From the NCBI GenBank assembly GCA_007123065.1, contig SKSI01000099.1, forward strand, positions 1 through 41,185: 41,185 nt of DNA, read 5' to 3'. The notes under the pieces are model-generated. The model was not told where the DNA came from, did no database searches, and was given only the letters and a program-made list of their open reading frames with translations. The stretch is from Bacteroidales bacterium (GTDB lineage Bacteria; Bacteroidota; Bacteroidia; Bacteroidales; UBA7960). Below, piece after piece: positions 12,897 to 29,364 of the stretch (position 1 is the first letter of the stretch; each line of letters opens with the position of its first letter). Made by a program: the position numbers and the translations under genes.

Positions 12897-14324
12897 TTAA
12901 AAGTACAAATCCCTTTTACCGGTTTTAATTTGCTCAATTTTCTTTTTAAGGCTTTCGACCCTTTGATCTTTAGCCAAATCGGTGAGTTTTTCGTTTATTA
13001 GGGCATATCCTTTTTCACGGGTATCCCCAGAAGCATAATCTTCAAGGTATTCAGCCATTGTAAGCAGCGCATTAGGCGTACAGTATCGTTTGATGAAACC
13101 CGGAACAGAGAACTCCATAAAATGCTCCCCCGTGCGTCCTAGACGATAACAAGCGGTACAGAAAGAGGGAATATAACCCTTGTTTATCAGTTCATCCATG
13201 ATCTCTGACAATGAACGGTTGTCATTAATCTGAAACTGTCCCTTGCTTAAATCCTGAGTTTCTCTTTTGCCTTTTGAATAACCACCAAGCTCCAGGTTTG
13301 TACCACCGTCGATCTGAGATACACCAAATCTGAGGATCTGGTCCCTCGTATGCGCAGGTTCACGAGCGGTAAGGATCATGCCTGTATAAGGAACAGCGAG
13401 ACGCAAAACAGAAACCAGACGGATGAATTCTTCATCAGAAACCAGGTGGTCTTTTGAAATATCAAGTGATAGAGCGTTCTGGATCCTGGGAAAAGAGATT
13501 GTATGAGGACCTACGTTATAGACTGCTTCAAAGTGGTTCACGTGCCTGACCAGCCCCATCACCTCAAATCGCCAGTCGTACAAACCAAACAAGGCACCGA
13601 TTCCCACATCATCTATCCCCGCCTCCTGGGCTCTGTCAAGCGATGTAAGGCGCCATTCATAATTGCGTTTCAGACCTCCCAGATGCACTTTCTCATAGGT
13701 TGGCTTATGATAGGTTTCCTGGAAAATCTGGTATGTACCGATGCCTGCATCCTTCACCTTCCGGAAGCCAGGAATGTCAAAAGGAGCGGCATTGATATTT
13801 ACCCTCCTGATCTCTCCGTTGCCATGCTTCACCCCATAAACTACCCTGACCGTTTCTGCAATGAAGTCAGCCGAATACTTGGGATGTTCTCCATAAACCA
13901 GAATGAGACGCTTGTGCCCCTGATCAACAAGAGCAGTGGCTTCTACCTTTAATTCATCGGTATTCAGGGTGATTCTTTTGACATCTTTGTTGGTAGACCT
14001 GAAACCACAGTACTGACAGTTATTGGTACACAAATCACCCACATAAAGCGGGGCAAACAACACAATGCGTTCTCCGTAAACCCGTTCCTTGAGAGTTCTT
14101 GCGCCATCCTTGATCTCCTCTATCAGCTCCGGATCAGTAGCATTCAGCAACACCGCAGTTTCTTCCAATGAAAGCCTTTTTTTATCCAATGAAGCCTGGA
14201 TCACTTCGCGCACCCTGATCTTGTCAGCCTTTACATGATTGATGTAATCCCAGATCTCATCAGCATCAATAAACGGCTGCATCCTTTTATCCGGAATACG
14301 ATATTTTTCAGGAGAATAAATCAT
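12897..14324 (-). CDS. hydG: [FeFe]-hydrogenase H-cluster radical SAM maturase HydG
   Basis: LFAPLY, CTNNCQYC (radical SAM), FQETYH, GPHTISFPR and the auxiliary-cluster motif PSFCTACYR...CTPNA. Confidence 0.96.
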   Translation of the reverse strand: MIYSPEKYRIPDKRMQPFIDADEIWDYINHVKADKIRVREVIQASLDKKRLSLEETAVLLNATDPELIEEIKDGARTLKERVYGERIVLFAPLYVGDLCTNNCQYCGFRSTNKDVKRITLNTDELKVEATALVDQGHKRLILVYGEHPKYSADFIAETVRVVYGVKHGNGEIRRVNINAAPFDIPGFRKVKDAGIGTYQIFQETYHKPTYEKVHLGGLKRNYEWRLTSLDRAQEAGIDDVGIGALFGLYDWRFEVMGLVRHVNHFEAVYNVGPHTISFPRIQNALSLDISKDHLVSDEEFIRLVSVLRLAVPYTGMILTAREPAHTRDQILRFGVSQIDGGTNLELGGYSKGKRETQDLSKGQFQINDNRSLSEIMDELINKGYIPSFCTACYRLGRTGEHFMEFSVPGFIKRYCTPNALLTMAEYLEDYASGDTREKGYALINEKLTDLAKDQRVESLKKKIEQIKTGKRDLYF

Positions 14325-14369: not shown

Positions 14370-15158
14370 TCACACATGCACCTTTAATCCGTCAAAAGCG
14401 AGAAATACGTTCTCAGGCAAACCGGCCTGTATACTTTCGTGCAGGCCCATGAAATGGCTCAGATGGGTAATGTAGGCAGTCTCCGGTTTTAGTTCCCTGA
14501 TGATATCCAAAGCTTCATCCAATGAGAAATGGGAAATATGGGGAGATTTTCTCAGTGCGTTGATAACCAAAACCCTGGAGCCGATAATTTTTTTCTTTTC
14601 CTCATCAGAGATAAAGCTGGCATCTGTGATGTAGGTAAAGTCATTCATGCGAAACCCGAAAACGGGTAATTTATGGTGCAGCACTTCAATGGGAGTGAAT
14701 TCAAAGCCATTAATTCCAAAGGGTTTATTTTCAATCACATGAAATTGCAATTGAGGCGCGCCAAAAAATCTCTTTTCCGTAAGGATATAAGGAAACTCTT
14801 TATTGACGGAGTCGATCACTTTTTCAGTGGCATAAATGTCAACAGTTTTATTCAGCACATAATTGAAGGCACGCACATCGTCGAGACCTGCAATATGGTC
14901 GCGGTGCCCGTGTGTAAACAGAATGGCTGATATATCCTCAACCTTTTCCCGAATCATTTGATAACGGAAATCGGGTCCGCAATCAATCACGAAATTGTCG
15001 TCCCCGACCTGAATCATCACCGAAGTACGCAGTCGCTGATCACGCGCATCTGCACTCTTACAAACCTTGCAGTCGCAAGCCACAACCGGCACGCCGGTTG
15101 AAGTTCCGGTGCCGAGAAAGGTGATGGTGATCGGTTTCTTATTTGTCATGGGATCCAT
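14370..15158 (-). CDS. Metallo-beta-lactamase fold hydrolase, PhnP-like
   Basis: FLGTGTSTGVP, DCGPDFR, THGHRDHIAGLDD, YITD and THLSH. Confidence 0.9.
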   Translation of the reverse strand: MDPMTNKKPITITFLGTGTSTGVPVVACDCKVCKSADARDQRLRTSVMIQVGDDNFVIDCGPDFRYQMIREKVEDISAILFTHGHRDHIAGLDDVRAFNYVLNKTVDIYATEKVIDSVNKEFPYILTEKRFFGAPQLQFHVIENKPFGINGFEFTPIEVLHHKLPVFGFRMNDFTYITDASFISDEEKKKIIGSRVLVINALRKSPHISHFSLDEALDIIRELKPETAYITHLSHFMGLHESIQAGLPENVFLAFDGLKVHV

Positions 15159-15169
15159 GTGCTCATTGT

Positions 15170-16090
15170 TTAATAAATCAGGTCTTCAACCATTTCGCGT
15201 GCTTCTTCCAAAACCTGGTCTGCCATCACTCCATTACCAAATGGGTTGCCAGACCAAACCAGTTTATAAAGATATAGTGTGCCTTCCTTTCCGTGGGGAT
15301 CGACCTTGTCATAAATCAACTGGTTCAGCAGTTTTTTGTTACCGAGATCGTCTTGCAGAATAAAACTCATGGCTTTCAAACAGCTGCCATCAACAAAAAG
15401 ATTGCCGGCATAGATGCCTGTAGGGGGAATCAGCTTCTCTACGGTAGTAATTTCAATACCCACGGGCGGTTCTCTGAAGCTGTCGTGGATTTGTCCATCG
15501 GCATACAGCGAGCCTTTTACAATGTATTGGTGATCAAGATATGCATTGGCCCTTTGTATGTTGCCATCCTTGAGTGCTTTTCGGATTTTTGTTGAGCTTA
15601 CTGTTTCATTCTCGATCAGTTTCAATGGTATCTCCTCCACCTTAAAGTCCATATCCCGGCTTAAACCGTGCAAATAGGAATAATCTCCTTCTCTGGCGTG
15701 ACCAAAATGGTGGTTATGTCCAACTACCACAACTTTTGCCATAAGATCACCAATCAGCATAGTTGTTACAAAATCGCGGGAGCTGGTTTTGCTGAATTCA
15801 AGCGTAAAAGGGATGATTATCAGGTTATCCAGCCCCGCTTTACGCAGTAGCTCAATTTTTTCATCTTGCGAATTAATCAATTTCAGATCTTTTTGATCAG
15901 GGTAGAGAACTTTGCGTGGATGCGGATCAAAGGTGATCAAAACCGACTCGCCATCAATTTCATCAGCAATTTCATTCAAACGGTTGATGATCAATTTATG
16001 TCCGATATGCACCCCGTCAAAGGAGCCGGTTGTAACAACTGCATTTTTAATCTTACCGGCAGCTTCGGCAGTGTGATGGTATACATTCAT
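15170..16090 (-). CDS. FAD synthetase (FMN adenylyltransferase), RibF-like, with a degenerate riboflavin-kinase domain
   Basis: N-terminal GSFDGVHIGH, TFDPHPR, VVGHNHHFG and VSSTKIR are intact. The C-terminal half lacks GRxxGFPTAN and the catalytic Glu motif, retaining only LIPPTGIYA. Confidence 0.85.
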   Translation of the reverse strand: MNVYHHTAEAAGKIKNAVVTTGSFDGVHIGHKLIINRLNEIADEIDGESVLITFDPHPRKVLYPDQKDLKLINSQDEKIELLRKAGLDNLIIIPFTLEFSKTSSRDFVTTMLIGDLMAKVVVVGHNHHFGHAREGDYSYLHGLSRDMDFKVEEIPLKLIENETVSSTKIRKALKDGNIQRANAYLDHQYIVKGSLYADGQIHDSFREPPVGIEITTVEKLIPPTGIYAGNLFVDGSCLKAMSFILQDDLGNKKLLNQLIYDKVDPHGKEGTLYLYKLVWSGNPFGNGVMADQVLEEAREMVEDLIY

Positions 16091-16119
16091 AATTGAAATT
16101 TTTTCTTTTTCGCAGGATT

Positions 16120-16752
16120 CTATTTTGATTTCACAAGGTATGCCAGTTTTTCAAGGGAGGTGATGATATCATATTCTTCGAGATAAATATCATCCGGGAC
16201 AGTCAGCGGAACAGATGTATAATTTAAAAGGCCTTTGATGCCGCAATCCAAAAGGTGTTTTGCTACTTCATGAGCAGCTTCAGGTGAAACAGTCAGTATG
16301 GCAATGGGAGATTGTTCTTCTTCAATTACGGATTGAACGTCTTTGATGTGATGGCAAGGGATCCCTGCTATGATCCGGTCTGTTTTTTGCGGGTCATTAT
16401 CAAAAGCTGCTACAATGCTCAGCTTATCCCGCTTACCGGAAAAATAGCTTGTAATGGCTCTTCCAAGGTTTCCCATCCCGACGATGATTACTTTTTGCCC
16501 ATCACTGCTGTCTATAATTTTCCCTATCAGGGCAACAAGATCTTTAATGACATAGCCTTTGCTCTGACTTCCTGAATAACCGATCAACATCAGATCCCGC
16601 CGAACCTGAACCGGCGTAAGGTTCATCATTCGGGCAAGCTCGTGCGAATAAATATTGGTTTTTCCTTCCCGTATGCTGTTGTATAAAATCCGCCGGTATT
16701 GACTAAGGCGTTCAATTGTTTTACCTGGAAGCTCTGACAATTTTTCTTTCAT
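16120..16752 (-). CDS. rex: Redox-sensing transcriptional repressor Rex
   Basis: TIERLSQY, SHELA, QVRRDL, Rossmann motif IVGMGNLGRA and AAFD. Confidence 0.93.
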   Translation of the reverse strand: MKEKLSELPGKTIERLSQYRRILYNSIREGKTNIYSHELARMMNLTPVQVRRDLMLIGYSGSQSKGYVIKDLVALIGKIIDSSDGQKVIIVGMGNLGRAITSYFSGKRDKLSIVAAFDNDPQKTDRIIAGIPCHHIKDVQSVIEEEQSPIAILTVSPEAAHEVAKHLLDCGIKGLLNYTSVPLTVPDDIYLEEYDIITSLEKLAYLVKSK

Positions 16753-16778
16753 ATTTATGATTTGAAATGGTTGCTATT

Positions 16779-17900
16779 TTATGTAATTGGAAACTGAACG
16801 GTAAAACAGCTACCCTCGTTGGGCATGCTATCAACATTGATGCTCGCACCATATAACTCAAGAAGCTTTTTAACGATGGAAAGGCCCAGTCCGGTACCCG
16901 TGATGTGTTTGGTCTGTTCACTTTTAATGCGAACAAAATCTTCAAACAAAGATTTAATATCCTCTTCTTCCATACCGATTCCTGTATCCTGAACCTCTAT
17001 CAGGGTGCCGGAATTCTTACGTTTGAGGTTCACATCTACCCTGCCGCCTTGTTTGTTGTATTTAATAGCATTTGATATCAGATTATTCATAATGATCTCC
17101 ATCTCCTGCCTGTCAGCTTCCATAGATACCTTTTCGCCACAGTTCAGATAGACATCCACATCTTTTTGTATTGCCAGGGGTTGAAATGCATCGATGCATT
17201 GTTGTGCCAGTTCACAAAGCAACACCGGTTCCATCTTTCTTTTTTTCTTTCCTGATTCAATGCGTGTGATATCAAGCAAGTCAAGGATCAGGTTACGCAT
17301 ACCCTGAAGTCGGTGCATCGAGCGGTCGATGATATCCTGGTATTCGTGCAGGGAATCTCCCATTTTGCGATCCTGCATGAGCTGTAAATAACCTTCAACG
17401 GCATTCAATGGTGCCTTCAGTTCGTGAGAGAGTACCGACAGAAACTGAAAACGCACCTGACGTCCTTCCACATTTAGTTTCTGTGTCATCCTGCGCAGAA
17501 AAAGCTGCTTGGTGATCGTTTCGATGGAAGCCCTCAGTTCTTTGGGTGTAAAAGGCTTAGGGACAAAATCGTACGCACCCTGTTTGGTTGCTTTTACAGC
17601 CAGTTCGAGTGATGCATAAGAAGTGATCATCACCACAACAACATCCAGGTTGTTGTTATTAATAAACTCCAAAACATCAATACCTTGAATACCAGGAAGT
17701 TTATTATCCAGCAAAATGATGTCCAGATCGTTTTTTCGAAGAATTTCAAGAGCCTCCTCTCCTGTTTCAACGGCCTGGACATCAAACCCGAAATCTTCAT
17801 CCATAAAGGGATAGCTTACAGAATAGTTATCAAGTATCCTGCAAACTCCCATACGGATACCGGGTTCATCATCCACCACGAGGAGCTTTAGCTTTTCCAT
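16779..17900 (-). CDS. Hybrid receiver-histidine kinase (REC-HisKA-HATPase), cytoplasmic
   Basis: VVDDE, ILLD, MITS and KPF in REC; SHELKAPL H-box; NLISNAIKY, DTGIG and GTGLGL. Confidence 0.92.
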   Translation of the reverse strand: MEKLKLLVVDDEPGIRMGVCRILDNYSVSYPFMDEDFGFDVQAVETGEEALEILRKNDLDIILLDNKLPGIQGIDVLEFINNNNLDVVVVMITSYASLELAVKATKQGAYDFVPKPFTPKELRASIETITKQLFLRRMTQKLNVEGRQVRFQFLSVLSHELKAPLNAVEGYLQLMQDRKMGDSLHEYQDIIDRSMHRLQGMRNLILDLLDITRIESGKKKRKMEPVLLCELAQQCIDAFQPLAIQKDVDVYLNCGEKVSMEADRQEMEIIMNNLISNAIKYNKQGGRVDVNLKRKNSGTLIEVQDTGIGMEEEDIKSLFEDFVRIKSEQTKHITGTGLGLSIVKKLLELYGASINVDSMPNEGSCFTVQFPIT

Positions 17901-17903
17901 GGA

Positions 17904-18302
17904 TCAGATTTTTAACAATTTATGGATCTCTTTTTGCAACTGGTCGTTACGTATCCCTTTATCAAGAAACAGTTCCGCCTTAATCCAGTCGCGCTCCTCC
18001 TCGGTGGTGACGTCAAACAACATACCCGTTTCTGCAGTAACGGCAGAAGCAATGATAACAGGAACATCCGGGTATTTATTCTTAATAATATGGCAAAGAA
18101 TAAAGCCGGTATCTTGCTGTTCCATCATCAGATCCAGAATGGCCAGATCCGGTTTTGTCTTTTCGATGATGGTTTCTGCTTCTTTTAGGGTATCGGCAGT
18201 TATCACTTCAAAACCCATATCCTCAATGGCTATTTTAAGCTGAAACAGATAATCGGTATCATCATCAACGATCAAAATCATTTTTTTTTCTTTTTTCAAC
18301 AT
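17904..18302 (-). CDS. Single-domain response regulator (receiver only)
   Basis: LIVDDD, LAILDLMME (phospho-Asp) and FLDK; no output domain. Confidence 0.9.
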   Translation of the reverse strand: MLKKEKKMILIVDDDTDYLFQLKIAIEDMGFEVITADTLKEAETIIEKTKPDLAILDLMMEQQDTGFILCHIIKNKYPDVPVIIASAVTAETGMLFDVTTEEERDWIKAELFLDKGIRNDQLQKEIHKLLKI

Positions 18303-18314
18303 ACCTGGTGGCTT

Positions 18315-20345
18315 TTATTGCTGTTTTTCTTCTTTTGATTTTCGGGGTAGTTTCAGAATGAAAGTAGTTCCGGTCGCACCATCATTGGGATCAGCATTGG
18401 ATTCCACTTTAATGCTGCCGCTGTGCATCTTGATGATGCCATAAATGATCGGTAGCCCGAGTCCTGTACCTTTACCATTTTCTTTTGTTGTGAAAAATGG
18501 TTCAAACATCCTTTCCAGATTCTCTTTGGGAATGCCAATTCCGGTATCGCAAATGCGAATTTCCATGGCACCTTCCGTTAAAATTTCTCCAACCTTAATA
18601 GTCAACGTGCCCCCATCGGGCATGGCATCAATTGCATTTTTAAACAGATTGGAGAATACCTGTACCATTTGATCCTGGTCGCATTCCAGCACCGGATCCT
18701 GACTGTTGATCTCGACATTAAGCCCAACGTTTTCAGGAATTACAAAGGTCTTTAATCCATTGTTGATTAGTTTCTTAACATTCACTTCTTCGATACTTAC
18801 CTTACTCTTGCGTGCAAAGTTCAGAAGGCCTCCCACAATTTTCTTGCACCTGTCTGCCTGTTCCACAATCATCTTTAGATCCCTGTAGAGCGGGGAGGAT
18901 GGATCCATTTCATCAAGCAAAATATGGCTGTACATGATCACAACTCCCAAAGGGTTGTTAACCTCATGAGCAATACCAGCAGCAAGTTGCCCCATTGATG
19001 CAAGTTTTTCGCTTTGTTTCAGGGCGGCCTGTGTAGACGCCAGCTTTAGATTTGACACATCCAGCTCCTTGATATATTCGTGCAACTGATCAATCGTGTA
19101 GGGCAAACACATTTCCGATTCCGCCAGGCCTTGCAGAATCGCTATGGCGTGCTCGTAGCAAGTATCATAACCACAAGCGCCGCAATTAAGCTCATCCTCC
19201 TGTTCTCTTTTTCCCAATCTGGCCAACACCTCTCTGATCTCTTCATCGCGCGGAGGGCTTGGAAAACGCTGATCACTGGCCTTAAAACCGCGTCCGAGTT
19301 CGAGCTCCAGATAAGTAGACAAATCCTTTTGCCATTGTTCCAGGTCAATCCTGTCATATTTCCGCTTGGCAAAATTCGATATGTTTTTTCGCTTGTAGAA
19401 GAACTGACGGCTATGGCTCATTCCCGGACCATTGATACAGCCGTTGCAGCATAGCAGGTCAAACATCTTGGCCTCCAGGTAACCTTCTTCAAATTCACGC
19501 AACACTTCTATGATGTCGCGGCGCCCTTCTGCCACAATGATGTCCCCTTTCACAAAATCCTCCTCCAAATCGACAGTCTGCAACATCCCACCACTTATTG
19601 GAAAAATTGCACCTTTCCCTGCCAATGGGGGATCAAACTCTGAAGGTTCCACGTTGTGTTCGGTAAGTTTCTTTTCAGCGAACATCCGTCTAAGCTCAAC
19701 GAAGGAGATTACTTCATCAATCAGGCCTTCAAATTGCTCTTCTGCCGCTTCCACTTTCTTTGCGATACAGGGACCGATAAAAACCACCCGGGTATTCTGA
19801 CCATATTTTTGCTTAACCACCTTAGCTGTAGCGATCATTGGAGACACAACCGGAACGAGTGAATCAATGATCTGTGGATGGTGTTTTTCTACGTAGCTTA
19901 CAATGGCCGGACAGCTTGTTGAGATCAGCGGACGGTTTGGTTTTGACTCAAGCAGTTCCTTGTATCTGTTAGCGATCAGCTCGGCACCAAAGGCCACTTC
20001 AGTAACATAATCAAAGCCCAGAGCACGTATCATGCCGACAAAATGCCTGTAATCGTTAATATCGGTAAATTCACCGGCTATGCTTGGGGCAATAATAGCA
20101 GCTACCGGCGCATGTTCGTGCAAAAGCTTTTTTACTTTATCAATTGAAAATGCAAACATTTTGGCATCACGACTGCACACGCGAATGCAGTTTCCACAAG
20201 CGATGCACCTGGAAGGAATGATCTCCGCCTGGCCGTTCGCGATCTTGATCGCTTTTGCGGGACACTCACGCACGCAGGTATAGCATACCTTGCAACGGTC
20301 CTTAACCGTATAGATGATCTCTGCATTTTTGTGACTTTCGGCCAT
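18315..20345 (-). CDS. Group C (sensory) [FeFe]-hydrogenase fused to a histidine kinase
   Basis: 2x[4Fe-4S] ([22 protein letters not shown]); H-cluster P1 STSCPA, P2 [10 protein letters not shown]3 [10 protein letters not shown]; FeS domain CGACGYDTC...C; His[14 protein letters not shown]; HATPase [19 protein letters not shown] and GTGLGL. Confidence 0.9.
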
Positions 20346-20359
20346 AAGGTTTCAATCGT

Positions 20360-22087
20360 TTACTTTAATACTGTCCGCTCTTTAAAATCAGTTTTGATCC
20401 AGTTCCGGGTAATTTCCTGATCAGGCTTAAAGCGATTGTCTTTAAAAAAAGCTGCTGTTGCTGGATTATCCTGTGGATATTGGAAAGCACAATTCTTTTC
20501 CAACTCCGCACACAGCTTCTTTCTGGCAATAACCTGTTCAAAGCCACGGCTGACAGGTTGTCCGCCACCGCCGACACAGCCATTCAAACAAGCCATCACT
20601 TCAACATAATGAATATCTTTGCGTCCATCCAGTAAAAGCTGTTGCATGTATTCTTCTGCATCACTGATAGAACTGACCCATGCAAAACCAATCTGGTGGT
20701 CACCAATCGTTACTTTGGTTTCCTTCCTCCCATAGATATTTTTCGGCGTATTAAACTTGAATGTATCCATTTTGCCACCCAACATCCGGTAAGTCTCCCT
20801 TGCTACCGCTTCTGCTTTTCCTCCTGAATAACCGAGCTTCCAGGCTGCTGCAGAAGATTGGACGTAAGGGTCGTCAAGTGCTTCACCTTCTGTATTTCGG
20901 ATGTCGATACCGGAGCTGCGCAACAGTTGAAGCAACTCACGTACGGTTAAAACAGCATCTGTTTCGGAGACCCCTTTATGGGTGTTTTCTTCCCTGGATG
21001 CTTCATACTTTTTCCCAACGCAAGGCATCACTGCAACGTTAAAAATCTGCTCCATCGGGATATCAGCTTCCGCGGCAAACTGCGTTTTAATTAACGTACT
21101 CAGAATTTGCTGCGGCGATTTGGTCTTAGACAAAGAGGTTATCCATTCAGGACGAAACTCCTCTACATAGCGCACCCATGCCGGGCAGCAAGATGACAAC
21201 AGTGGCAGGGAGTTTTCTTTATTCTGAATATGCGCAATCAGATTTCCGGCCTCCTCGCTGATGTTGATATCAGAGGCCACACCCAGATGAAATACCTTAT
21301 CGGCGCCACATCGTTTCAAAGCACCTGCGATTATATCCATCGGCTGGTCCTTTACTTTCAGACCCATCGCTTCAGCAACGGAACCGGCAACGGATGGACT
21401 GATCATAAACATTACCCTCACATCTTTTTTATCAAGTGCCGCATATACCTTTTCCTGATGCGAAATATCAGTCAGCGCCGCAGTCGGACACACCTGAATA
21501 CACTGTCCGCAATGTATGCAGCTGGAGATATTCAACCCTTTGTTAAATGCGCTGTTAACCATAGTCTGGTTGCCTCTTGAAATAAAATCAATGGCGGTTA
21601 CCAGTTGTACCTCTTCGCAGATACGGACACAGCGACTGCAAAGAACGCATTTGGCCGGGTCGCGCGCCACGCTGGTACTGGAATAATCAGGATAGTGTGT
21701 GTTTTTCTTACCAAAATACTTGCGTTCTTTCACATTCATCATCTCTGCCAGCCACTGCAGTTCACAATTTCCGTTGCGCTGGCAATAGAGGCAATCGTCG
21801 GGATGATTTGACAAGAGCAATTCGACCAAAGACTTGCGTGCCTGCATAACGCGCCGGGAATTGGTCTTGACTTTCATCCCCTCCTCCACAGGAAAAGAAC
21901 AGGATGTTACCAGATCACGCTTCCCTTCTACTTCCACGGCACACAACCTGCAAGCTCCTGTTGGAGAGAACCGGTTCATATGACAAAGCGTAGGGATCCG
22001 GATGCCGTGGCCACGCAGGGCAGCCAGCAGCGTTTCACCCTCTCTGACGGTTATGTGTTTATTGTTAACTTCGATCTGAAATTCCAT
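20360..22087 (-). CDS. hydA: [FeFe]-hydrogenase HydA/HndD-type subunit (M3 architecture), divergent
   Basis: [2Fe-2S] PTLCH...GACRLC...SC; His-ligated cluster HPDDCLYCQRNGNC; 2x[4Fe-4S]; P1 SSCCPAW, P2 MPCVGKKYE and P3 EVMACLNGCVGGGGQP. Confidence 0.88.
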   Translation of the reverse strand: MEFQIEVNNKHITVREGETLLAALRGHGIRIPTLCHMNRFSPTGACRLCAVEVEGKRDLVTSCSFPVEEGMKVKTNSRRVMQARKSLVELLLSNHPDDCLYCQRNGNCELQWLAEMMNVKERKYFGKKNTHYPDYSSTSVARDPAKCVLCSRCVRICEEVQLVTAIDFISRGNQTMVNSAFNKGLNISSCIHCGQCIQVCPTAALTDISHQEKVYAALDKKDVRVMFMISPSVAGSVAEAMGLKVKDQPMDIIAGALKRCGADKVFHLGVASDINISEEAGNLIAHIQNKENSLPLLSSCCPAWVRYVEEFRPEWITSLSKTKSPQQILSTLIKTQFAAEADIPMEQIFNVAVMPCVGKKYEASREENTHKGVSETDAVLTVRELLQLLRSSGIDIRNTEGEALDDPYVQSSAAAWKLGYSGGKAEAVARETYRMLGGKMDTFKFNTPKNIYGRKETKVTIGDHQIGFAWVSSISDAEEYMQQLLLDGRKDIHYVEVMACLNGCVGGGGQPVSRGFEQVIARKKLCAELEKNCAFQYPQDNPATAAFFKDNRFKPDQEITRNWIKTDFKERTVLK

Positions 22088-22105
22088 ATCAAAATATTAA
22101 TGATG

Positions 22106-24058
22106 CTATTTTATCGTGACGGCATTAAACTTGCAAACATCGTAGCAAGAACCACAGGCAATACATTTCTCCCTGACAATAAAGTGTGGATACCTGGGCG
22201 AGCCTATAATGGCATCTACGGGACATTTTTTAAGGCAGGCCGTACATCCCGTACATGCTTCGACATCAATTACAAAGATTCTTAAGTCTGTACAGTGGTT
22301 CGCCGGACATTTTCGTTCGAAAATATGCGAATCAAATTCATTTTTGAAAAACTTCAGGGTATTCAGAATCGCCATCGGCGATGACTTGCCCAATGCACAT
22401 AAGGAAGTATCACGGATCACTCCGGCAAGGCTTTTAAGCTGCATTACACCTTTAAAACGCTCCAGTGTCTGGAAGGACTGACCCTCTTCCGGTCGTCGCG
22501 TTGCTTGCTCCATGACCTCAAGCATACGTGCGGTGCCTTCCCTGCAGGGAATGCATTTCCCGCAACTCTCTTTTTTAAAGAATGCCGTAAAAAACTTGGC
22601 CATATCCACCATACACACTTCTTCATCAAGCACGACAAAGGCACCGCTGCCGAGCGCAGCACCAATTTGCTTCAAGGCATCAAAATCTATCAGTGTGTCA
22701 AGGGTTTCTTCCACAATGTAACTACCGCTGTTGATGCCCAGCACAATGGCTTTAAATGCCTTTTCATCCTTAAGTCCGCCTCCCACGAGGTCAATAACTT
22801 CCCTGAAACTGGCCCCCATAGGTACTTCGACCGTTCCATAATATTTTATGTTACCGGACAATGTAAACAACTTAGTCCCTTTACTGGTGTCAGTTCCCAG
22901 ATTCAAAAACCATTCCGGACCGTTTTTCAGTATGAGCGGGACATTGAAAAGGGTTTCCACGTTATTGACAATCGTAGGCTTATCCCATAACCCTCTTTCA
23001 GCAGGGAATGGAGGCTTGGAGGACGGCATGGCCCTTTTTCCCTCAATGCTGCTGTTAAGGGCTGTTTCTTCACCACAAACAAAAGCCCTTGCACCTTCTT
23101 TTACAACCACATCAATATTTACACCTGACTCGAATATGTGATGTCCGATGATACCGTATTCACGGGCTTGATCGATTGCCTCATTGAGTCTTTTGATAGC
23201 AAGTTTGAATTCTTTTCTGATAAAAATGAATGCTTTGCTGGCGCCGATGGCATACGCTGCGATCAAAACTGCTTCAATGAGCCTGTGGGGATTGCTTTCA
23301 ATGATCGCTCTGTTCATATAGCTACCCGGATCACTTTCTACAGCATTACAAACCAAATATTTCTGATCGCTGCCATACTGAAGTGCCGTGGCCCACTTTT
23401 TCCCGGCCAAATAACCACCTCCGCCACGACCTGCCAGTCTGCTTTGTTCAATTAACCCGCAAACCTGTTCGGGTGTGAGCCGTGATATCGTATCTACAAA
23501 GGCCTGGTAACCGCCTTTGGCAATACAGGCGGCCACAGATACCGGGTCTATTATTCCACAATGCTCAAGCAGGATACGATGCTGTGAGGAAAAGAAAGGA
23601 TGCTCCTCAACGGCATCTACACCCTCCCACTCCTGAAAAATTGGATTCTTATACTGACCGATTACCTCTGCCTCCGGGAGGTTGCCATTTAACACCTCAT
23701 CCAGCAGCAATTGAACTTTATCAGCCGTTACATTGGAAAATGAGATCCGTGATTTTCCCGGCAGCTGGACATCCACAATCGGTTCAGCTGCACACAAACC
23801 AACGCAACCACCTTCAACAAGTTCTGCATCGAACTCATGATCAACAAGGTAATTTCTGATCGCCTCAAAGCTTTTCTCTGCTCCGGCAATACGCCCGCAG
23901 CTGGCCATCCCGACATAAATGAGAGGCTTATGAACCCGTTCACCGGCAATATAAGACAACGGCTTTTTTAATGAAGGATCATTATGCCGTTGCGGATTCA
24001 GCAACACCTTGCTAATTAAAAATTCACGGACATCCCGGGTATGATCTAATGTCATCAT
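22106..24058 (-). CDS. hydB: HydB/HndC (NuoF-like) flavin subunit with an N-terminal thioredoxin-like Fe-S domain, divergent
   Basis: GMASCG...GCVGLC; GRGGGG; AFVCGEETAL; NNVETL; ESCGKCIPCREG; H...C...C motif; C-terminal 2x[4Fe-4S]. Confidence 0.88.
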   Translation of the reverse strand: MMTLDHTRDVREFLISKVLLNPQRHNDPSLKKPLSYIAGERVHKPLIYVGMASCGRIAGAEKSFEAIRNYLVDHEFDAELVEGGCVGLCAAEPIVDVQLPGKSRISFSNVTADKVQLLLDEVLNGNLPEAEVIGQYKNPIFQEWEGVDAVEEHPFFSSQHRILLEHCGIIDPVSVAACIAKGGYQAFVDTISRLTPEQVCGLIEQSRLAGRGGGGYLAGKKWATALQYGSDQKYLVCNAVESDPGSYMNRAIIESNPHRLIEAVLIAAYAIGASKAFIFIRKEFKLAIKRLNEAIDQAREYGIIGHHIFESGVNIDVVVKEGARAFVCGEETALNSSIEGKRAMPSSKPPFPAERGLWDKPTIVNNVETLFNVPLILKNGPEWFLNLGTDTSKGTKLFTLSGNIKYYGTVEVPMGASFREVIDLVGGGLKDEKAFKAIVLGINSGSYIVEETLDTLIDFDALKQIGAALGSGAFVVLDEEVCMVDMAKFFTAFFKKESCGKCIPCREGTARMLEVMEQATRRPEEGQSFQTLERFKGVMQLKSLAGVIRDTSLCALGKSSPMAILNTLKFFKNEFDSHIFERKCPANHCTDLRIFVIDVEACTGCTACLKKCPVDAIIGSPRYPHFIVREKCIACGSCYDVCKFNAVTIK

Positions 24059-24525
24059 GCTGAATTTTCTTTTTCCCTGAGTGATTTGATGAGTTCTTTG
24101 AGGCTTTGAAGATTCAGGTTGGTATGATACATATCATTCACCTCAATAAGGGGCGCAAGGCCGCAGGCACCAATGCAACTTACCACCTCCAGGCTAAAAA
24201 TTCCCTGTTTATCACATTCACCATCAGAAATTTTTAAAATGCGCTCAAGCTCTTTGAGCAAAGTGCCAGCACCGGCAACATGACAAGCGGTTCCGTGGCA
24301 TAACCGGATGTGGTATTTCCCAACAGGACCAAAACGGAAATTGTCATAAAACGTAGCTACCCCGTATATTTTGTTAACACTGATCCTGAGATAAGAACCT
24401 ACAGATGATATCATCTCTTCAGATAAAAAACCATTTTTATCCTGAATAGCCTGCAGCAAAGGAATCATATCCTCCCGCCGTCGATTCGGAAACTTTTCAA
24501 AAACATCTTCAAGTGAAATGCTCAT
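24055..24525 (-). CDS. hydC: HydC/HndA (NuoE-like) [2Fe-2S] subunit
   Basis: IPLLQAIQ, YGVATFY, CHGTACH and CIGACGLAP; stop overlaps the hydB start (ATGA). Confidence 0.92.
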   Translation of the reverse strand: MSISLEDVFEKFPNRRREDMIPLLQAIQDKNGFLSEEMISSVGSYLRISVNKIYGVATFYDNFRFGPVGKYHIRLCHGTACHVAGAGTLLKELERILKISDGECDKQGIFSLEVVSCIGACGLAPLIEVNDMYHTNLNLQSLKELIKSLREKENSA

Positions 24526-24535
24526 TTATTTTGCG

Positions 24536-24553
24536 TTGATATAAATTTCACAA
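24536..24553. promoter_or_regulatory. Candidate Rex operator upstream of hydC
   Basis: TTGATAT-AAAT-TTCACAA versus the Rex consensus TTGTGAA-N4-TTCACAA; right half is perfect; lies 11-28 bp from the hydC ATG; rex is in the same operon. Confidence 0.6.
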
Positions 24554-24734
24554 TACTCAACAAATATCGTAAAAAAATAAAGAACATACACATATAAATG
24601 ACAAACGACCTGAATAAAAAACACCAAAACCTACTTATTAAATTCATTTACAAATAGTTATACTTGTTAGAAAACTCCGTTTTTATAATAATGGCACGAA
24701 CTGTAGTTCCGTGATAAACAATAAAGTATGCAAG

Positions 24735-24752
24735 ATGTGAAGGAATTAACTG
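24735..24752. promoter_or_regulatory. Second, weaker candidate Rex operator upstream of the hfsA-like gene
   Basis: ATGTGAA-GGAA-TTAACTG, located where the -33 region of the TATTTTTG promoter (24773-24780) would fall. Confidence 0.4.
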
Positions 24753-24772
24753 GATTTATCAAAAGCTTTCTT

Positions 24773-24780
24773 TATTTTTG
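24773..24780 (+). promoter_or_regulatory. Bacteroidetes -7 element for the hfsA-hydS-phosphatase operon
   Basis: TATTTTTG, about 40 bp upstream of ATG 24821. Confidence 0.55.
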
Positions 24781-24820
24781 TTATCAGATATCAACTAATG
24801 CGAACAAATTGGGTTAAATT

Positions 24821-25078
24821 ATGAGCCAGGGGAAGGCGGGAGAAATTGTAATATGCATGGGAAGCAGTTGTTTCTCCAGGGGAAATAAAATAGCTCTGGG
24901 TATCATACGGAGTTATTTAAGAGAGAATAGCCTCGAGGCTGAGATCACATTTCGCGGAGCACATTGTCTGGGTATTTGCGAACAGGGTCCTGTTTTGATA
25001 CTAAACGAAAAGCAGCACAAAAAGGTTATGCCGGATGACATTCCCGGAATGCTGGATGATTTTTTTGCAGAAAACTGA
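24821..25078 (+). CDS. HfsA-like thioredoxin-fold [2Fe-2S] ferredoxin
   Basis: ICMGSSCFSRGN and HCLGICEQGP; typical first gene of hfs/hydS operons. Confidence 0.85.
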   Translation: MSQGKAGEIVICMGSSCFSRGNKIALGIIRSYLRENSLEAEITFRGAHCLGICEQGPVLILNEKQHKKVMPDDIPGMLDDFFAEN

Positions 25079-25153
25079 AGTAGAAATAACACCCTTCTTC
25101 GTTTTGCCAGTCTGCATCATCAAAAACCCAAAATTGAATAACCTGTCCAACAA

Positions 25154-27007
25154 ATGGAAACAATACGTATAGATCATGACCGTTGCAATAAATCGTATGC
25201 CTGCATCCGGGCGTGTCCGGTCAAAGCGATAACTACCCGGAACAAGGATGGCATGCCGGTTGTTAACCACGCGCGCTGTATAGGTTGCGGCAGCTGCCTT
25301 AGTGTTTGTGCCGTGGATGCCGTTTCACATTACAGCGATGTGGATACTTGCATCAACCTGCTTAAATCTGATGATCAAGTTGCGGCCATCGTAGATCCGA
25401 CGATCAGCGGAGAATTTCCGGACATCACCGATTACAGGAAGTTTGTGGAGATGATCCGACGACTTGGTTTCGACTATGTCAATGAAGTATCCTTTGGTGT
25501 CGATCTGGTGGCGTCCAAATACCATGACCTTCTTTCAAACTTTAAAGGGAAACACTACCTTTTGGCCAATTGCCCCACCCTGGTCTCCTATATTGAAAAG
25601 TTTTATCCGGAACTGACAGAAAACCTTGCGCCAATTGAAATTCCAATGACTGCAACGGCAAAAGTCGTGCGTGCTGCTTATGGCAAAAAATTAAAAGTGG
25701 TTTTTTTCGGCCCCTGCCTGTCTGCCAAACACGATGCACAATTGATTGATGGAGATGGGAAGGTGGATGCTGTGCTGACGTTCAGCGAGCTGCGGGCATT
25801 GTTCCGAAAGTTTGAAATCAAAGAGTCTAAAGTGGAATATTCCGATTTTGACCCTCCTATTGGATATTTGGGATCGATGTACCCCATTAGCAACGGCATC
25901 ATTTATGCAGCCGATATTGATGAGTCTGTGCTCAATGGAAAAGTGATCACTGTAGAATCGAAAAATAATTTTATGGATGCTGTTGAAGAATTCAGCAAGC
26001 ATCCGGAAAAATTGAAAAAACATTTCAATATTTTTTACCATTCAGGCTGCCTGACCGGGCCGGGTACAACTGATAGAAGCAATCAGTTTTTACGCCGTGC
26101 CCTGGTTACCAAATACGTGCATAAGCGTTTAAAAAAATTTGATAAGAAACAATGGCAGCTGGATATTGAAAAATACGGCAAACTGGATTTAAATCGCAGC
26201 TACATCAAAGATGACCAGCGCCTTCCTGAACCTGATCCTGATAGTGTTGAAGAGATCCTCAAAAGCCTTGGGAAACGTCTTGAAGAATCGGCCTCCTGCA
26301 ACGCATGTGGATTCAGAAGCTGCAACGACTTTGCCAGGTCAATAAGCCAGGGACTATCGAAACCTGAAATGTGCTTGAATTACTCTCTCTCCAGCAAGCA
26401 GGAATACATCAAAACACTGAAGAACAATAATGACAAGCTTCGAAAACAGCTTGATAAAACAGTTGAAAAGGATAAGGAACTGCATGAAGCACACCAGAAG
26501 ATCAAACAACGGTCGGAAACTACTTCCGCACTGCTTAAAAACCTGCCATCAGCTGCAGTAATTGTGGATGAAAAGCTCAAAGTGATCGAGTCAAACGAAA
26601 GCTTTATAAAAGTGCTTGGAGAAGATGCCGCAATGATCAATGAAGTGATTCCCGGCCTGATGGGTGCCGACCTGAAGACGCTGCTCCCCTACAATATATA
26701 CAATCTCTTTAACTATGTTCTTGAAAAAGGGGAGAATATCGTTGGAAAGGATGTAATGCACGAGGACAGGCTGCTGAATGTCAGCATCTACTCATTAAAG
26801 CCAAACAAGATCGTTGGTGGTGTTTTCAGAGATATGTATGTAGCCGAAGTGCGCCAGGAAGAAATCATCAACAGGGTTGGAGAAGTTATTGATGAAAATT
26901 TGAAGATGGTGCAGCAAATCGCCTTTTCTCTCGGGGAAGGAGCCAGCAATACAGAGAGAATGTTGAATTCAATCATCGAAACCTACAAAAAGACAGGAAA
27001 AAAATAG
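25154..27007 (+). CDS. PAS-linked group C sensory [FeFe]-hydrogenase homologue (HydS/HfsB-like) with degenerate ligands
   Basis: Ferredoxin motifs CNKSYACIRACP and CIGCGSCLSVC; P1 ANCPT; P2 GPCLSAKHD; P3 region NIFYHSGCLTGPG; FeS domain CNACGFRSC...C; coiled coil; PAS-like LPSAAVIVD...N.SF; C-terminal VQQIAFSLGEGA. Confidence 0.85.
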   Translation: METIRIDHDRCNKSYACIRACPVKAITTRNKDGMPVVNHARCIGCGSCLSVCAVDAVSHYSDVDTCINLLKSDDQVAAIVDPTISGEFPDITDYRKFVEMIRRLGFDYVNEVSFGVDLVASKYHDLLSNFKGKHYLLANCPTLVSYIEKFYPELTENLAPIEIPMTATAKVVRAAYGKKLKVVFFGPCLSAKHDAQLIDGDGKVDAVLTFSELRALFRKFEIKESKVEYSDFDPPIGYLGSMYPISNGIIYAADIDESVLNGKVITVESKNNFMDAVEEFSKHPEKLKKHFNIFYHSGCLTGPGTTDRSNQFLRRALVTKYVHKRLKKFDKKQWQLDIEKYGKLDLNRSYIKDDQRLPEPDPDSVEEILKSLGKRLEESASCNACGFRSCNDFARSISQGLSKPEMCLNYSLSSKQEYIKTLKNNNDKLRKQLDKTVEKDKELHEAHQKIKQRSETTSALLKNLPSAAVIVDEKLKVIESNESFIKVLGEDAAMINEVIPGLMGADLKTLLPYNIYNLFNYVLEKGENIVGKDVMHEDRLLNVSIYSLKPNKIVGGVFRDMYVAEVRQEEIINRVGEVIDENLKMVQQIAFSLGEGASNTERMLNSIIETYKKTGKK

Positions 27008-27036
27008 ATTCCTGCAAACCAACAAAGAGGCCTGAT

Positions 27037-28221
27037 ATGTCAGACAGATTCTATATTGAAGTCGGTTCAGCGCAGCGCAGCCATGTTGGCGAACGCATCT
27101 GCGGTGACGTGTTCCTTTCTGAAAAAGTGAAAGAGGAAGGGCGCACCGTGGTTGTATTATCGGATGGAATGGGACACGGAGTAAAAGCAAACCTCCTGGC
27201 AACCCTAACAGCAAAAATGTCACTGAATTTCACAAAAGAACACAAAGACGCACAAAAGATCGCAGAGATCATTATGAATACCCTGCCCGTATGCAGCGAA
27301 CGAAAAATCAGCTATGCAACCTTCTCTATTATAGATATTGAGAAAGACGGACAAACCACCATCCTGAACTATGATAATCCGGACCCGATTCATATTCGCG
27401 ACAATGAACTGTTAAAGCCGGAATGGCACAAAATGACGGTTGAAGGAGATGATCATACCAATAAAGAGATTACCGCGTGCACGTTTAAACTGCAGAAGGA
27501 AGATCGCATTGTAATCATGTCTGACGGGATTACCCAGTCGGGTCTGGGGAAAGGCCGTTATCTGCTAGGCTGGGGACTGGAAAATGTGGAGTATATGTTG
27601 CTCAGCCAGATTAAGGAGCAACCTGATATTTCAGCTGCAAAACTGTCGTCACTTCTGGTAAACAAGGCACACGCCAACGATGAATACCAGGCCAAGGATG
27701 ATACGAGCGTGGTTGTAGTATACTGCAGGGAACCCAGGCGCTTGCTGATCTCTTCTGGTCCACCCTTTGAGAAGGAAAAAGACGGGGAACTTGCAAATAT
27801 GGTTCGCGACTTTGAAGGGAAAAAAATAATTTGTGGCGGCACCACTGCTGACATCATCTCCCGCGAGCTGGATATCCGGATCGATGACTCGCTCGACTTT
27901 GACGACCCGGACCTCCCCCCCATATCACACATGAAAGGTATTGATCTTGTAACCGAAGGAATCCTGACTTTAAGCAAAACAGCCAATTTACTTGAACAAT
28001 ACGGGCCTGACTCAGATCCCGGCAAAGGGCCTGCAGACCTGATTGTACGTCAGATTATGGAAAGTGATGAGATCCATTTTATTGCGGGAACCGCCATCAA
28101 TGTAGCACACCAGGACCCAAATCTTCCTGTTGAGCTCGAGATCCGAAGATCTGTCATAAAAAAGATCGCCAATATTCTGGAACAGAAGTTTCTTAAAGAA
28201 GTAAGCCTGCGCTTCATCTGA
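27037..28221 (+). CDS. SpoIIE/PP2C-family Ser/Thr phosphatase (HfsC-like)
   Basis: CGDVF, VLSDGMGHG, YATF, MSDGITQSG, KDDTS and C-terminal IICGGTTA domain. Confidence 0.9.
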   Translation: MSDRFYIEVGSAQRSHVGERICGDVFLSEKVKEEGRTVVVLSDGMGHGVKANLLATLTAKMSLNFTKEHKDAQKIAEIIMNTLPVCSERKISYATFSIIDIEKDGQTTILNYDNPDPIHIRDNELLKPEWHKMTVEGDDHTNKEITACTFKLQKEDRIVIMSDGITQSGLGKGRYLLGWGLENVEYMLLSQIKEQPDISAAKLSSLLVNKAHANDEYQAKDDTSVVVVYCREPRRLLISSGPPFEKEKDGELANMVRDFEGKKIICGGTTADIISRELDIRIDDSLDFDDPDLPPISHMKGIDLVTEGILTLSKTANLLEQYGPDSDPGKGPADLIVRQIMESDEIHFIAGTAINVAHQDPNLPVELEIRRSVIKKIANILEQKFLKEVSLRFI

Positions 28222-28305
28222 TTATTGATTATCAGCCGGCTTCAATCAATCGACATAAAATACTGTTGAAAAAGCTATCTTTGACCTGAAATTTTTATCA
28301 GAAGA

Positions 28306-29352
28306 ATGCTTTCAGATGATATTTACATGCAAAGGTGTATTGACCTCGCCCTTCCCGGGCTTGGCCATGTTGCACCCAATCCGCTTGTAGGAGCTGTTGT
28401 TGTTTTGAAGGACAAAATTATTGGCGAAGGATTCCACAGACGATACGGTGGCCACCACGCTGAAGTGGAAGCAATTCAAGCTGTTGAAGATAAGTCATTG
28501 CTGAAAAGATCCACCTTGTACGTGAATCTGGAACCCTGCTGCCATCACGGCAAAACCCCTCCCTGCACAGACCTGATCATGAAGAGTGACATTCCACACG
28601 TTGTAATCGGAACGGTTGATCCGTTTGACGCCGTTGCAGGTAAGGGCATAGCCCGTTTAAGAAGCCAGGGAGTAAATGTTCGTGTGGGTGTTCTAAAGGA
28701 TGAGTGCAGAGAACTCAACAAACGCTTTTTCGCGTTTTATGAGAAAAAAAGGCCCTATATCATATTAAAATGGGCACAAACTGCTGATGGCTATATAGAT
28801 ATAAACCGATTGTCAAATGCAGAAAAACGTCCTACCTGGATCACCAGTGAGAAACTCCGAATGCTTGTACATAAATGGCGCACCGAAGAAGCTGCTATAA
28901 TGGTCGGAACTGAAACAGCACTTAAAGATAACCCCAAACTTAATGTCCGGGACTGGCACGGCCCAAACCCTTGTCGCATTGTTATCGACAGGAGGTTAAG
29001 GCTAAGTCCGGATTACAACCTGTTGGATGACACACAACCAACACTGGTATTTAACGAGATGCAAAGCAAAACGACAGGGAATACCAGATTCATTCAAATC
29101 CCCTTTAACCAGAACATATTGCCTCATGTAATGAAGTTTTTATTTGAAGAGCGGCTGCAATCATTAATTGTTGAGGGTGGAAGAAAGTTGCTGCAGTCAT
29201 TCATCGACAGCAACCTCTGGGATGAAGCAAGAATTTTCACAGGGAGTCAGTTTTTTTGTGATGGTATTAAGGCACCGAATTTGTTATCCGTAAAAAACAA
29301 AGCACACATCATCATCGGTCAGGAGGGCTTTTTTAGAATAAAAAACGCTTGA
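28306..29352 (+). CDS. ribD: Riboflavin biosynthesis deaminase/reductase RibD
   Basis: PNPLVGAV, HAEVEA, LEPCCHHGKTPPC, LKWAQTADG and VEGG; TATCTTTG element at 28276-28283. Confidence 0.96.
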   Translation: MLSDDIYMQRCIDLALPGLGHVAPNPLVGAVVVLKDKIIGEGFHRRYGGHHAEVEAIQAVEDKSLLKRSTLYVNLEPCCHHGKTPPCTDLIMKSDIPHVVIGTVDPFDAVAGKGIARLRSQGVNVRVGVLKDECRELNKRFFAFYEKKRPYIILKWAQTADGYIDINRLSNAEKRPTWITSEKLRMLVHKWRTEEAAIMVGTETALKDNPKLNVRDWHGPNPCRIVIDRRLRLSPDYNLLDDTQPTLVFNEMQSKTTGNTRFIQIPFNQNILPHVMKFLFEERLQSLIVEGGRKLLQSFIDSNLWDEARIFTGSQFFCDGIKAPNLLSVKNKAHIIIGQEGFFRIKNA

Positions 29353-29364
29353 CCCGTATTATCT

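Follow-up and report, generated by a model that had tools for sequence, protein, structure and literature searches.

We analysed a 41,185-nucleotide stretch of Bacteroidales DNA (the window), which is contig C202 of a 1.77-Mb metagenome-assembled genome (MAG) that is 81% complete. It contains a hydrogenase locus with two divergent arms that, on balance, we take to be a conserved, Rex-gated divergon controlling hydrogen metabolism, in which two H2-sensor branches accompany a divergent HydABC of low turnover while the bulk flux passes elsewhere. Its probable role is to adjust hydrogen metabolism, most of which it would not itself carry, and the comparisons below support its description as a regulatory module with a divergent HydABC.

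Organization and conservation of the locus

The long arm lies on the minus strand and reads hydC-hydB-hydA, a kinase-fused sensory-type [FeFe]-hydrogenase, a single-domain response regulator (REC), a second kinase with its own receiver, and rex, with successive intergenic gaps of −4, 18, 14, 12, 3, and 26 bp. The short arm, on the plus strand, encodes a small HfsA-like [2Fe-2S] protein, the sensory hydrogenase HydS, and a PP2C phosphatase, with gaps of 75 and 29 bp. A spacer of 295 bp separates the two arms. The order, strands, and domains of both arms, obtained from Pfam and NCBIfam gene calls, agree with a first-pass annotation of the window. The limit of about 50 bp that it gave for the gaps holds in the long arm but is exceeded by the 75-bp gap in the short arm. 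It also bounded the unit at 16120..28221; the genes within these bounds stand, but the conserved unit is longer, extending beyond rex to ribF (61/64 loci), hydG (60/64), and an MBL-fold metallo-hydrolase gene that is confined to the nearer clade (36/64).

These counts come from a survey of gene neighbourhoods, which the first-pass annotation had proposed as a check. A scan of species-representative genomes yielded 244 relatives of the kinase-fused hydrogenase, and 79 loci were kept for comparison; all of these belong to Bacteroidales or Bacteroidota MAGs, with 50–94% identity in this protein. Gene presence was counted only in loci with sufficient flank. The hydCBA genes precede the kinase-fused hydrogenase in 64/64 loci, REC is present in 67/67, the second kinase and rex in 64/67 each, and the divergent HydS arm in 49/53. 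The complete ten-gene set was found in 42 of 49 loci. Where the second kinase is missing (L015, L016, and L037), REC is directly followed by rex. In L050, an annotated Hox-type NAD-linked [NiFe] operon (fused HoxE/F, HoxU, HoxY, and HoxH; 251–4815) substitutes for the HydS-PP2C arm, and an extra single-domain REC precedes hydC; L055 gave a similar pattern by tblastn only.

The kinase-fused hydrogenase was also searched for in an even sample of 301 Bacteroidales genomes (E ≤ 1e-100, full-length or partial matches). It matched in 146 of them, or in 138 of the 291 high-quality genomes, with the HydS paralogue usually encoded on the opposite strand at a distance of about 6 kb. The kinase-fused hydrogenase also occurs in MAGs labelled as Ignavibacteria and Kapaibacteria. 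The arrangement is conserved and not strain-specific, and the locus and order-wide counts indicate that carrying both sensors is the norm of a large clade. The co-occurrence of the two sensor types, which had been regarded as unusual, is therefore the rule within the order.

The kinase-fused hydrogenase and the phosphorelay

The kinase-fused hydrogenase (18315..20345, minus strand; 676 residues) carries its H-cluster domain, HisKA, and HATPase_c within one polypeptide (Pfam Fer4 twice, Fe_hyd_lg_C with E 4.6e-52, FeS PF04060, HisKA, and HATPase_c). Its pocket motifs are TSCP (C299 replaced by Ser) and GPC (M353 replaced by Gly), and LLCCNGC keeps all four [4Fe-4S]H cysteines. The H-cluster motifs are nearly invariant in 79 sequences, and a Cx2Cx4Cx16C motif stands immediately ahead of the coiled coil. 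The protein is collinear with HydS up to about residue 430, at the C-terminal cluster (BLASTP, 34% identity, E 2e-119), which bears out the earlier proposal that the two sensory hydrogenases are paralogous. Excerpts from the literature on group C enzymes describe a 2x[4Fe-4S] domain at the N terminus, unconserved C299 and M353, and a C-terminal Cx2Cx4Cx16C (PMC8163306, PMC10055695). Judged from their motifs, both sensors carry these hallmarks, with C299 replaced by Ser or Asn, M353 replaced by Gly, and Cx2Cx4Cx16C present, and the kinase-fused protein appears to have the architecture of group C1. In the HydDB description, the kinase-linked C1 and the phosphatase-linked C3 are putative classes only (PMC5037454).

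REC (17904..18302, minus strand; 132 residues; Pfam Response_reg, E 4.5e-16) consists of a receiver domain only. The second kinase (16779..17900, minus strand) is a REC-HisKA-HATPase protein, according to Pfam, with no sensor or output domain. Among 74 orthologues of REC, D13, D14, D57, and K115 show little or no variation, and all 66 orthologues of the second kinase share D65, H159, and the N, G1, and G2 boxes; the acidic pocket and the Thr/Ser and Lys residues of the receivers are also kept (n = 74 and 66, respectively). Because the catalytic His and Asp, the receiver residues, and the kinase boxes are invariant, the relay is predicted to work and to be maintained by selection. The locus encodes no output domain, on a response regulator or otherwise, and in the 67 related loci with flank only REC, the REC-kinase, and rex come next in the row, so that the term "output-less" used for this relay in the first-pass annotation is accurate as an observation. 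A contig from an RNA-labelled run has single-T insertions at 18280 and 18323, near the start of REC and the end of the kinase-fused hydrogenase; they do not appear in the DNA run and may be strain variants or assembly errors.

HydS, its partners, and the PP2C phosphatase

HydS (25154..27007, plus strand; 617 residues; Pfam Fer4 twice, Fe_hyd_lg_C with E 2.5e-34, and FeS) has an N-terminal domain for two [4Fe-4S] clusters, an H-domain, and a C-terminal Cx2Cx4Cx16C motif, as read from Pfam and the translation. Its H-cluster motifs are ANCP, GPCLSAKHD, and FYHSGC. The position equivalent to C499, the fourth cysteine of [4Fe-4S]H, is His in the window, so that the set of four cysteine ligands is incomplete and the remodelling that had been claimed for the HydS active site is real. 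Across 56 orthologues this column contains Cys in 21, His in 18, Asp in 9, and Asn in 8, and Cys is almost confined to the distant clade, which suggests several independent replacements. In 34 sequences, the other three cysteine ligands do not vary, and neither does the GPG loop. The Cys/His/Asp/Asn distribution appears to be an unusual natural series at a cluster ligand, and it had not been foreseen in that form. No solved group C structure is among the PDB matches of HydS.

A PAS domain had been assigned to HydS. The best Pfam match in the window protein (E 0.015) does not reach the cut-off, but matches to PAS_8 were obtained in 23 of 34 orthologues (best E 3.8e-4) and to PAS in 18 of 34. 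In an AlphaFold model built with 34 orthologues (mean predicted local distance difference test, pLDDT, of 75), a long coiled coil at residues 414–462 is followed by two strands, four helices, and three strands at residues 463–562, which is the order of a PAS domain (pLDDT 72–86). A fold search with the whole model returned hydrogenases only, as the H-domain dominates it, and did not confirm the PAS domain in that way. We accept a PAS-like domain on the basis of the modelled topology and the orthologue matches.

The small protein encoded ahead of HydS (24821..25078, plus strand; 85 residues) is HfsA-like and resembles half of a thioredoxin-like [2Fe-2S] protein; it matches the C-terminal half of the Pfam 2Fe-2S_thioredx profile (E 3.7e-9) and has four cysteines in a Cx4C...Cx3C pattern, as read from the DNA. 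The adjoining Ser/Thr phosphatase begins 29 bp 3′ of HydS (27037..28221, plus strand; 394 residues) and is a PP2C of the SpoIIE/RsbU/RsbX type (Pfam SpoIIE, E 3.1e-17). Its model (pLDDT 77) returned in Foldseek, as top matches, SpoIIE (5mqh, E 6.5e-12), RsbX, the RsbU-RsbW protein Rv1364c, and RssB; the predicted fold is nearest to those of partner-switching phosphatases. A complex prediction for HydS residues 460–617 with the PP2C, both supplied as alignments, scored 0.02 against a mark of 0.32, and we draw no inference from it. The C-terminal domain of the PP2C (residues 232–394; 27730–28221) is of the alpha/beta type and strongly conserved, and its GGTT, LPP, and AHQDP motifs are invariant. 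It gave no Pfam hit, and its neighbours in the Protein Atlas are unnamed stand-alone proteins of 150–180 residues from Spirochaetota, Bacteroidota, and Bacillota. Its identification as a DRTGG domain was rejected (hhalign probabilities of 0.8% and 2.3%).

Divergence of HydABC

The three subunits are encoded on the minus strand and have the domain composition of a group A3 enzyme. HydA (20360..22087) is a divergent group A3-type catalytic subunit with [2Fe-2S]/[4Fe-4S] domains at its N terminus (Pfam) and canonical L1–L3 motifs, HydB (22106..24058) is a NuoF-like flavoprotein that begins with a [2Fe-2S] domain and ends with a 2x[4Fe-4S] domain (Pfam), and HydC (24055..24525) is a NuoE-like [2Fe-2S] subunit (Pfam 2Fe-2S_thioredx, E 5.7e-45). 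The best solved relative of HydA is the bifurcating HydA1 of T. kivui (8a6t, 411.8 bits), and HydB has its counterparts from A. woodii, T. kivui, and T. maritima among its PDB relatives.

The first-pass annotation had counted HydA and HydB, together with HydS, among proteins with remodelled active-site motifs. This was correct for HydS and HydB, but the H-cluster signatures of HydA are intact (SSCCPAW, MPCVGKKYE, and EVMACLNGCVGGGGQP), and its change concerns the outer proton path, where E282 is replaced by Asn and R286 by His (CpI numbering). The canonical HydA paralogues, both of them in genome G002 of the same genus, read TIMEEGTELLxRL and keep all five proton-path residues. The E282 position is hypervariable across the aligned HydA rows, and the full set of E279, E282, R286, and S319 is found in only 6 of 78 rows, two of which are added canonical paralogues. 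The K358 column contains Lys in 30, Asn in 24, and Met in 20 of 76 orthologues, and C299 is replaced by Ala in 19 of 76, in the distant clade. HydA scores 221.8 bits for the Pfam H-domain against 323–334 bits for the canonical paralogues, and it gave no hit to the small-subunit family Fe_hyd_SSU. In HydB, the FMN (flavin mononucleotide) loop is GRGGGGYLAGKKW and the NAD loop is GARAF, whereas the solved relatives have GRGGAGFPTGLKW and GAGAF, and GRGGGGFPTGLKW and GAGAF stand in the long canonical HydB of this genus. The Gly-to-Arg replacement in the NAD loop is shared by 45 of 72 orthologues; like the HydA changes, it is not confined to one strain.

The locus HydABC also diverges rapidly. In the single genome pair compared (G002 and G016), the canonical paralogues are 92% and 91% identical in HydA and 89–90% in HydB, against 64% for HydA and 75% for HydB of the locus; the kinase-fused hydrogenase is 82% identical, and HydS and the PP2C 74% each. 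Across 47 near-clade loci, the median identity of HydA is 64%, the lowest among the large locus proteins (70–83% for the others). These values support the view that a divergent HydABC paralogue stands beside the sensors.

The first-pass annotation had also proposed to look in the genome for a second, canonical hydABC. Three H-cluster genes were found in this MAG, all of them in the window, and no second hydABC was found at its 81% completeness. However, a further HydA that scores as canonical is encoded by 20 of the 24 other genomes of the genus, among them all 11 with at least 90% completeness. The four genus genomes in which none was found are only 64–86% complete, and the absence of a canonical hydABC here may therefore be an assembly gap. 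The second NuoF-like gene of the MAG, on contig C121, was considered as part of a second hydABC and rejected, as it belongs to a NuoE-NuoF-molybdopterin set (L150, 5125–8715); this set, which is interrupted by the contig end, resembles an NAD-linked formate dehydrogenase.

The canonical HydAs of the genus belong to two additional hydABC sets. G016 has a second supercluster with the order hydC-shortHydB-hydA-rex-DRTGG-HATPase_c_2-DRTGG-PHP-HATPase_c-2Fe2S-hydB-hydA-hydC, which includes an RsbW-like ATPase. Such ATPases are the natural antagonists of partner-switching phosphatases. The PP2C arm of G281, a complete chromosome, is adjoined by another hydA-hydC pair, which was detected by tblastn only and is taken for the end of the canonical set. 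Because of this adjacency and the RsbW-like ATPase of G016, the HydS-PP2C arm may communicate with the canonical cluster. The canonical HydA that is accompanied by a short HydB of 385 residues and a second rex (L083, 7706–9496; L092, 7357–9147; G002 and G016) has TSCSPGW as its L1 motif, as has the second hydA of L073; in this motif, Ser occupies the second cysteine of the pair, which is normally a ligand of the H-cluster [4Fe-4S].

Rex operators and expression

Rex regulons of Clostridia and Thermotogae cover hydrogenase operons, with a palindromic operator of the TTGTGAA/TTGTTAA type before the hyd genes and rex adjacent. Here, Rex (16120..16752, minus strand) is an NADH/NAD+-sensing repressor with a winged helix and a Rossmann fold (NCBIfam NF003995, 206 bits against a cut-off of 126). 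Unlike those regulons, rex is the seventh gene of the operon, beside the phosphorelay in 64/67 loci, and is found in Bacteroidota.

Candidate operators were sought with a 14-position Rex consensus by comparing 52 orthologous spacers with shuffled spacers. Of the 52 spacers, 47 contain a box that agrees with the consensus at 11 or more of the 14 positions, against about 10% of shuffles. In the near clade the box lies 23–35 bp before hydC, and the copy in the window (24536..24553, TTGTGAAATTTATATCAA on the hydC strand; 11–28 bp before the hydC start) matches 11 of 14 positions; the distant clade has tandem boxes at about −84 and −67. A second Rex-like element (24736..24753), about 68 bp before the hfsA-like gene, is an 18-mer of which at least 14 positions are kept in 18 of 52 spacers, in the nearest relatives, against about 0.2% of shuffles; by eye, it consists of one TTGTTAA-type and one TTCACAA-type half-site. 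Predicted Rex-like operators thus appear to occupy conserved positions ahead of both arms. Just downstream of the second element, a TAnnTTTG-like motif was seen by eye at 24773–24780, which we take to resemble the promoter motif of Bacteroidetes. A scan of 11500–30500 for sigma-70 promoters and terminators, with a model that leaves out Bacteroidota promoters, was uninformative: it returned 37 promoters and 22 terminators, where chance predicts 35.3 and 18.0.

An RNA-labelled library contained 0.89 of the sampled words, and its contigs extend over the locus and span several gene junctions (19316–23957, 14041–16911, and 24807–25712). Among the RNA contigs listed, to which 38 further pieces do not belong, coverage stops at 24546 and resumes at 24807; a DNA contig crosses the spacer, and all bins have depth. 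The break, seen in one sample, is at most a hint of transcript starts in the spacer.

Proposed mechanism

In the mechanism that we propose, Rex, which is encoded in the long arm, would bind the operators ahead of both arms and be released as NADH rises. The kinase-fused hydrogenase would sense H2 as a member of the group C1 type. Hydrogen at its H-cluster would shift the redox state of the Cx2Cx4Cx16C cluster, and this cluster, which lies directly before the signalling helix, would set the autokinase activity. The phosphate could then pass to the single-domain REC, to the receiver of the second kinase, or to both, and the final target of the relay would be encoded elsewhere or be a protein partner. 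HydS would act as a group C3-type sensor that, with the small [2Fe-2S] protein, controls the adjoining SpoIIE/RsbU-like PP2C, whose counter-kinase is probably the RsbW-like ATPase encoded beside the canonical hydABC in genomes of the same genus. The locus HydABC would be a fast-evolving third paralogue with an intact H-cluster site, a degenerate outer proton path, and altered flavin and NAD loops. It is most likely an enzyme of low turnover that is either used conditionally or serves the sensors, and the bulk flux would run through canonical bifurcating enzymes encoded elsewhere.

Several points weigh against this interpretation, and some of them favour an ordinary bifurcating group A3 operon in which a competent HydABC is the main enzyme and the sensors and Rex switch its own expression. 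HydA of the window retains C299, E279, S319, K358, and every cluster ligand, and the closest solved relatives of HydA and HydB are subunits of bifurcating enzymes. The locus HydA is the sole catalytic-type H-cluster protein found in this MAG, in which maturase genes are present; a canonical hydABC, a DRTGG gene, and an RsbW-like gene were not found in it at 81% completeness, so that this organism may have no hydrogenase other than the locus enzyme. According to excerpts of PMC6226526, the E282A/D and R286A variants of CpI retain 30–90% of the activity, while that of E282Q falls to 0.4–8%. Because the key residues are kept and such variants are active, HydA could be a real catalyst. The fast evolution of HydA may reflect low expression only, and the comparison of identities is from a single genome pair. 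In the window alone, the Rex consensus gave five matches against 4.47 expected, which is the level of chance; the signal comes only from the comparison of orthologous spacers. The RNA library is one sample and may contain DNA, and no output was found for either signalling arm. However, all 11 genomes of the genus that are at least 90% complete have extra canonical-scoring HydAs, the locus HydA evolves several-fold faster than these, its orthologues often lack K358 or C299, and both loops of HydB are non-canonical. We therefore regard an ordinary A3 operon as possible, but clearly the less probable interpretation.

The sensory role of HydS is open to doubt of its own. With His at the C499 equivalent and the spread of Cys, His, Asp, and Asn among its orthologues, HydS may no longer hold a standard H-cluster and could serve simply to sense redox state or through its Fe-S clusters, or to provide the PP2C with a scaffold. 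However, the other three cysteines and the GPG loop are invariant, the H-domain is conserved as much as the remaining protein, and His and Asp can serve as [4Fe-4S] cluster ligands, so that we consider the loss of H2 sensing doubtful, although a serious candidate. Assembly of HydABC, the kinase-fused hydrogenase, and HydS into one physical complex, in which the NADH/ferredoxin/H2 balance is read out as phosphorylation, is distinctly improbable. The strict co-operonic linkage of hydCBA to the kinase-fused hydrogenase, the N-terminal 2x[4Fe-4S] domains of the sensors, which have no known partner, and the sensor-like degeneration of the HydA proton path agree with such a complex. However, a regulator would be just as likely to share an operon with its target, contact between the proteins has no support, and HydS appears dispensable beside HydABC because its arm is replaced in 4 of 53 loci, as by the Hox-type operon of L050. 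We give a slightly better, but still small, chance to a scheme in which the locus HydABC is no metabolic hydrogenase but a dedicated redox reference module. Its slow H-cluster would link the NADH and ferredoxin pools to the sensors, so that three H-cluster proteins compare H2 pressure with redox state; REC, whose gene remains beside rex in the loci that lack the second kinase, would have Rex itself or an enzyme as its direct target instead of a DNA-binding regulator, and the role of the PP2C would be to reset an RsbW/DRTGG switch that acts on the canonical bifurcating hydrogenase.

Flanking genes

On the minus strand, ribF (15170..16090), encoding riboflavin kinase/FAD synthetase, lies directly 3′ of rex (Pfam FAD_syn, E 2.7e-46; NCBIfam ribF families). 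It is followed by the MBL-fold metallo-hydrolase gene (14370..15158; Pfam Lactamase_B_2, E 3.3e-34) and by hydG (12897..14324), encoding the radical-SAM maturase of the H-cluster (NCBIfam TIGR03955, 514.5 bits against a cut-off of 312). The gaps from rex through ribF and the MBL-fold gene to hydG are 29, 11, and 45 bp, and hydE and hydF were also found in the MAG. The short arm is followed by ribD (28306–29352) and a UPF0029 gene. Flavin genes thus stand beside both arms, and ribD was seen next to the PP2C in the nearest relatives only (14 loci). The flanking ribF and ribD could be a link to the FMN supply of HydB or a coincidence.

The dnaA gene (31909–33360) lies 3.7 kb past the short arm, and the locus may be near a replication origin; the cumulative GC skew drops across the whole window without a clear turn. 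Three tandem genes for FKBP-type peptidyl-prolyl isomerases (299, 296, and 176 residues) occupy 36542–38914 on the minus strand.

Relation to known systems and significance

HydS of Thermotoga maritima (group C, M2f; a putative sensor) shares with the window HydS the N-terminal 2x[4Fe-4S] domain, the replacement of C299 and M353 (M353 by Gly), the Cx2Cx4Cx16C motif followed by a PAS domain (PAS-like in the window protein), and the position beside a group A3 enzyme, as far as described in parts of PMC8163306 and PMC10055695. The window protein differs from it in having His at the position of the fourth [4Fe-4S]H cysteine, in being paired with a PP2C and a small [2Fe-2S] protein, and in its occurrence in Bacteroidota. 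The order of small protein, H-cluster/PAS protein, and PP2C resembles hfsABCD of Thermoanaerobacterium saccharolyticum and the HydS cluster of Ruminococcus albus (PMC5707799). Passages of the same source report that hfsA and hfsB act genetically as regulators, since their deletion raises adhE, and that hfsC and hfsD are needed. Unlike hfsABCD, the present locus lacks hfsD and any Ser/Thr kinase; in the genus, an RsbW-like ATPase is encoded within the canonical hydABC supercluster instead. A fourth hfs-like gene was not found in the window, where ribD and the UPF0029 gene follow the PP2C, or in the related loci.

A kinase-linked H-cluster protein near a multimeric NAD-linked [FeFe]-hydrogenase is already described in Bacteroidales, namely ING2E5A_0849 (C1) of Petrimonas mucosa, whose gene lies near the hnd genes (excerpts of PMC7768429). 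Class C1 is defined in HydDB by clustering only (PMC5037454) and is not known to have a characterised member. Unlike that description, the kinase is fused here and is followed by REC, the REC-kinase, and rex, with no DNA-binding regulator in the relay. A similar logic is seen in the [NiFe] HoxBC with HoxJ and HoxA, in which a low-activity hydrogenase and a histidine kinase control hydrogenase genes (excerpts of PMC5707799); however, the metal site is unrelated, and the DNA-binding response regulator HoxA has no counterpart here. HydABC itself resembles the bifurcating enzymes of T. kivui (8a6t), A. woodii (7q4v), and T. maritima (7p5h) in its three subunits, domain order, and cluster-binding motifs. 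It differs from them in the E282N and R286H changes and the missing small-subunit Pfam hit of HydA and in the GGGGYLAGKKW and GARAF loops of HydB, and it evolves much faster than the canonical paralogues of the genus.

The way in which fermenting bacteria detect H2 is a long-standing question, and the group C [FeFe]-hydrogenases, including a class C1 with no characterised member, are called sensors on domain evidence alone. The locus offers a widespread conserved set for joint testing, which consists of a kinase-fused sensor with its relay, a PAS/PP2C sensor with a natural Cys/His/Asp/Asn series, Rex operators, and a HydABC paralogue whose proton path has decayed as in sensory enzymes. For the A3 enzyme of B. 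thetaiotaomicron, irrespective of its locus type, low transcription and low activity are reported (PMC12578642). Assignments to "group A3" in Bacteroidales genomes and metagenomes may mix sensor-linked, probably slow enzymes with bulk H2 producers.

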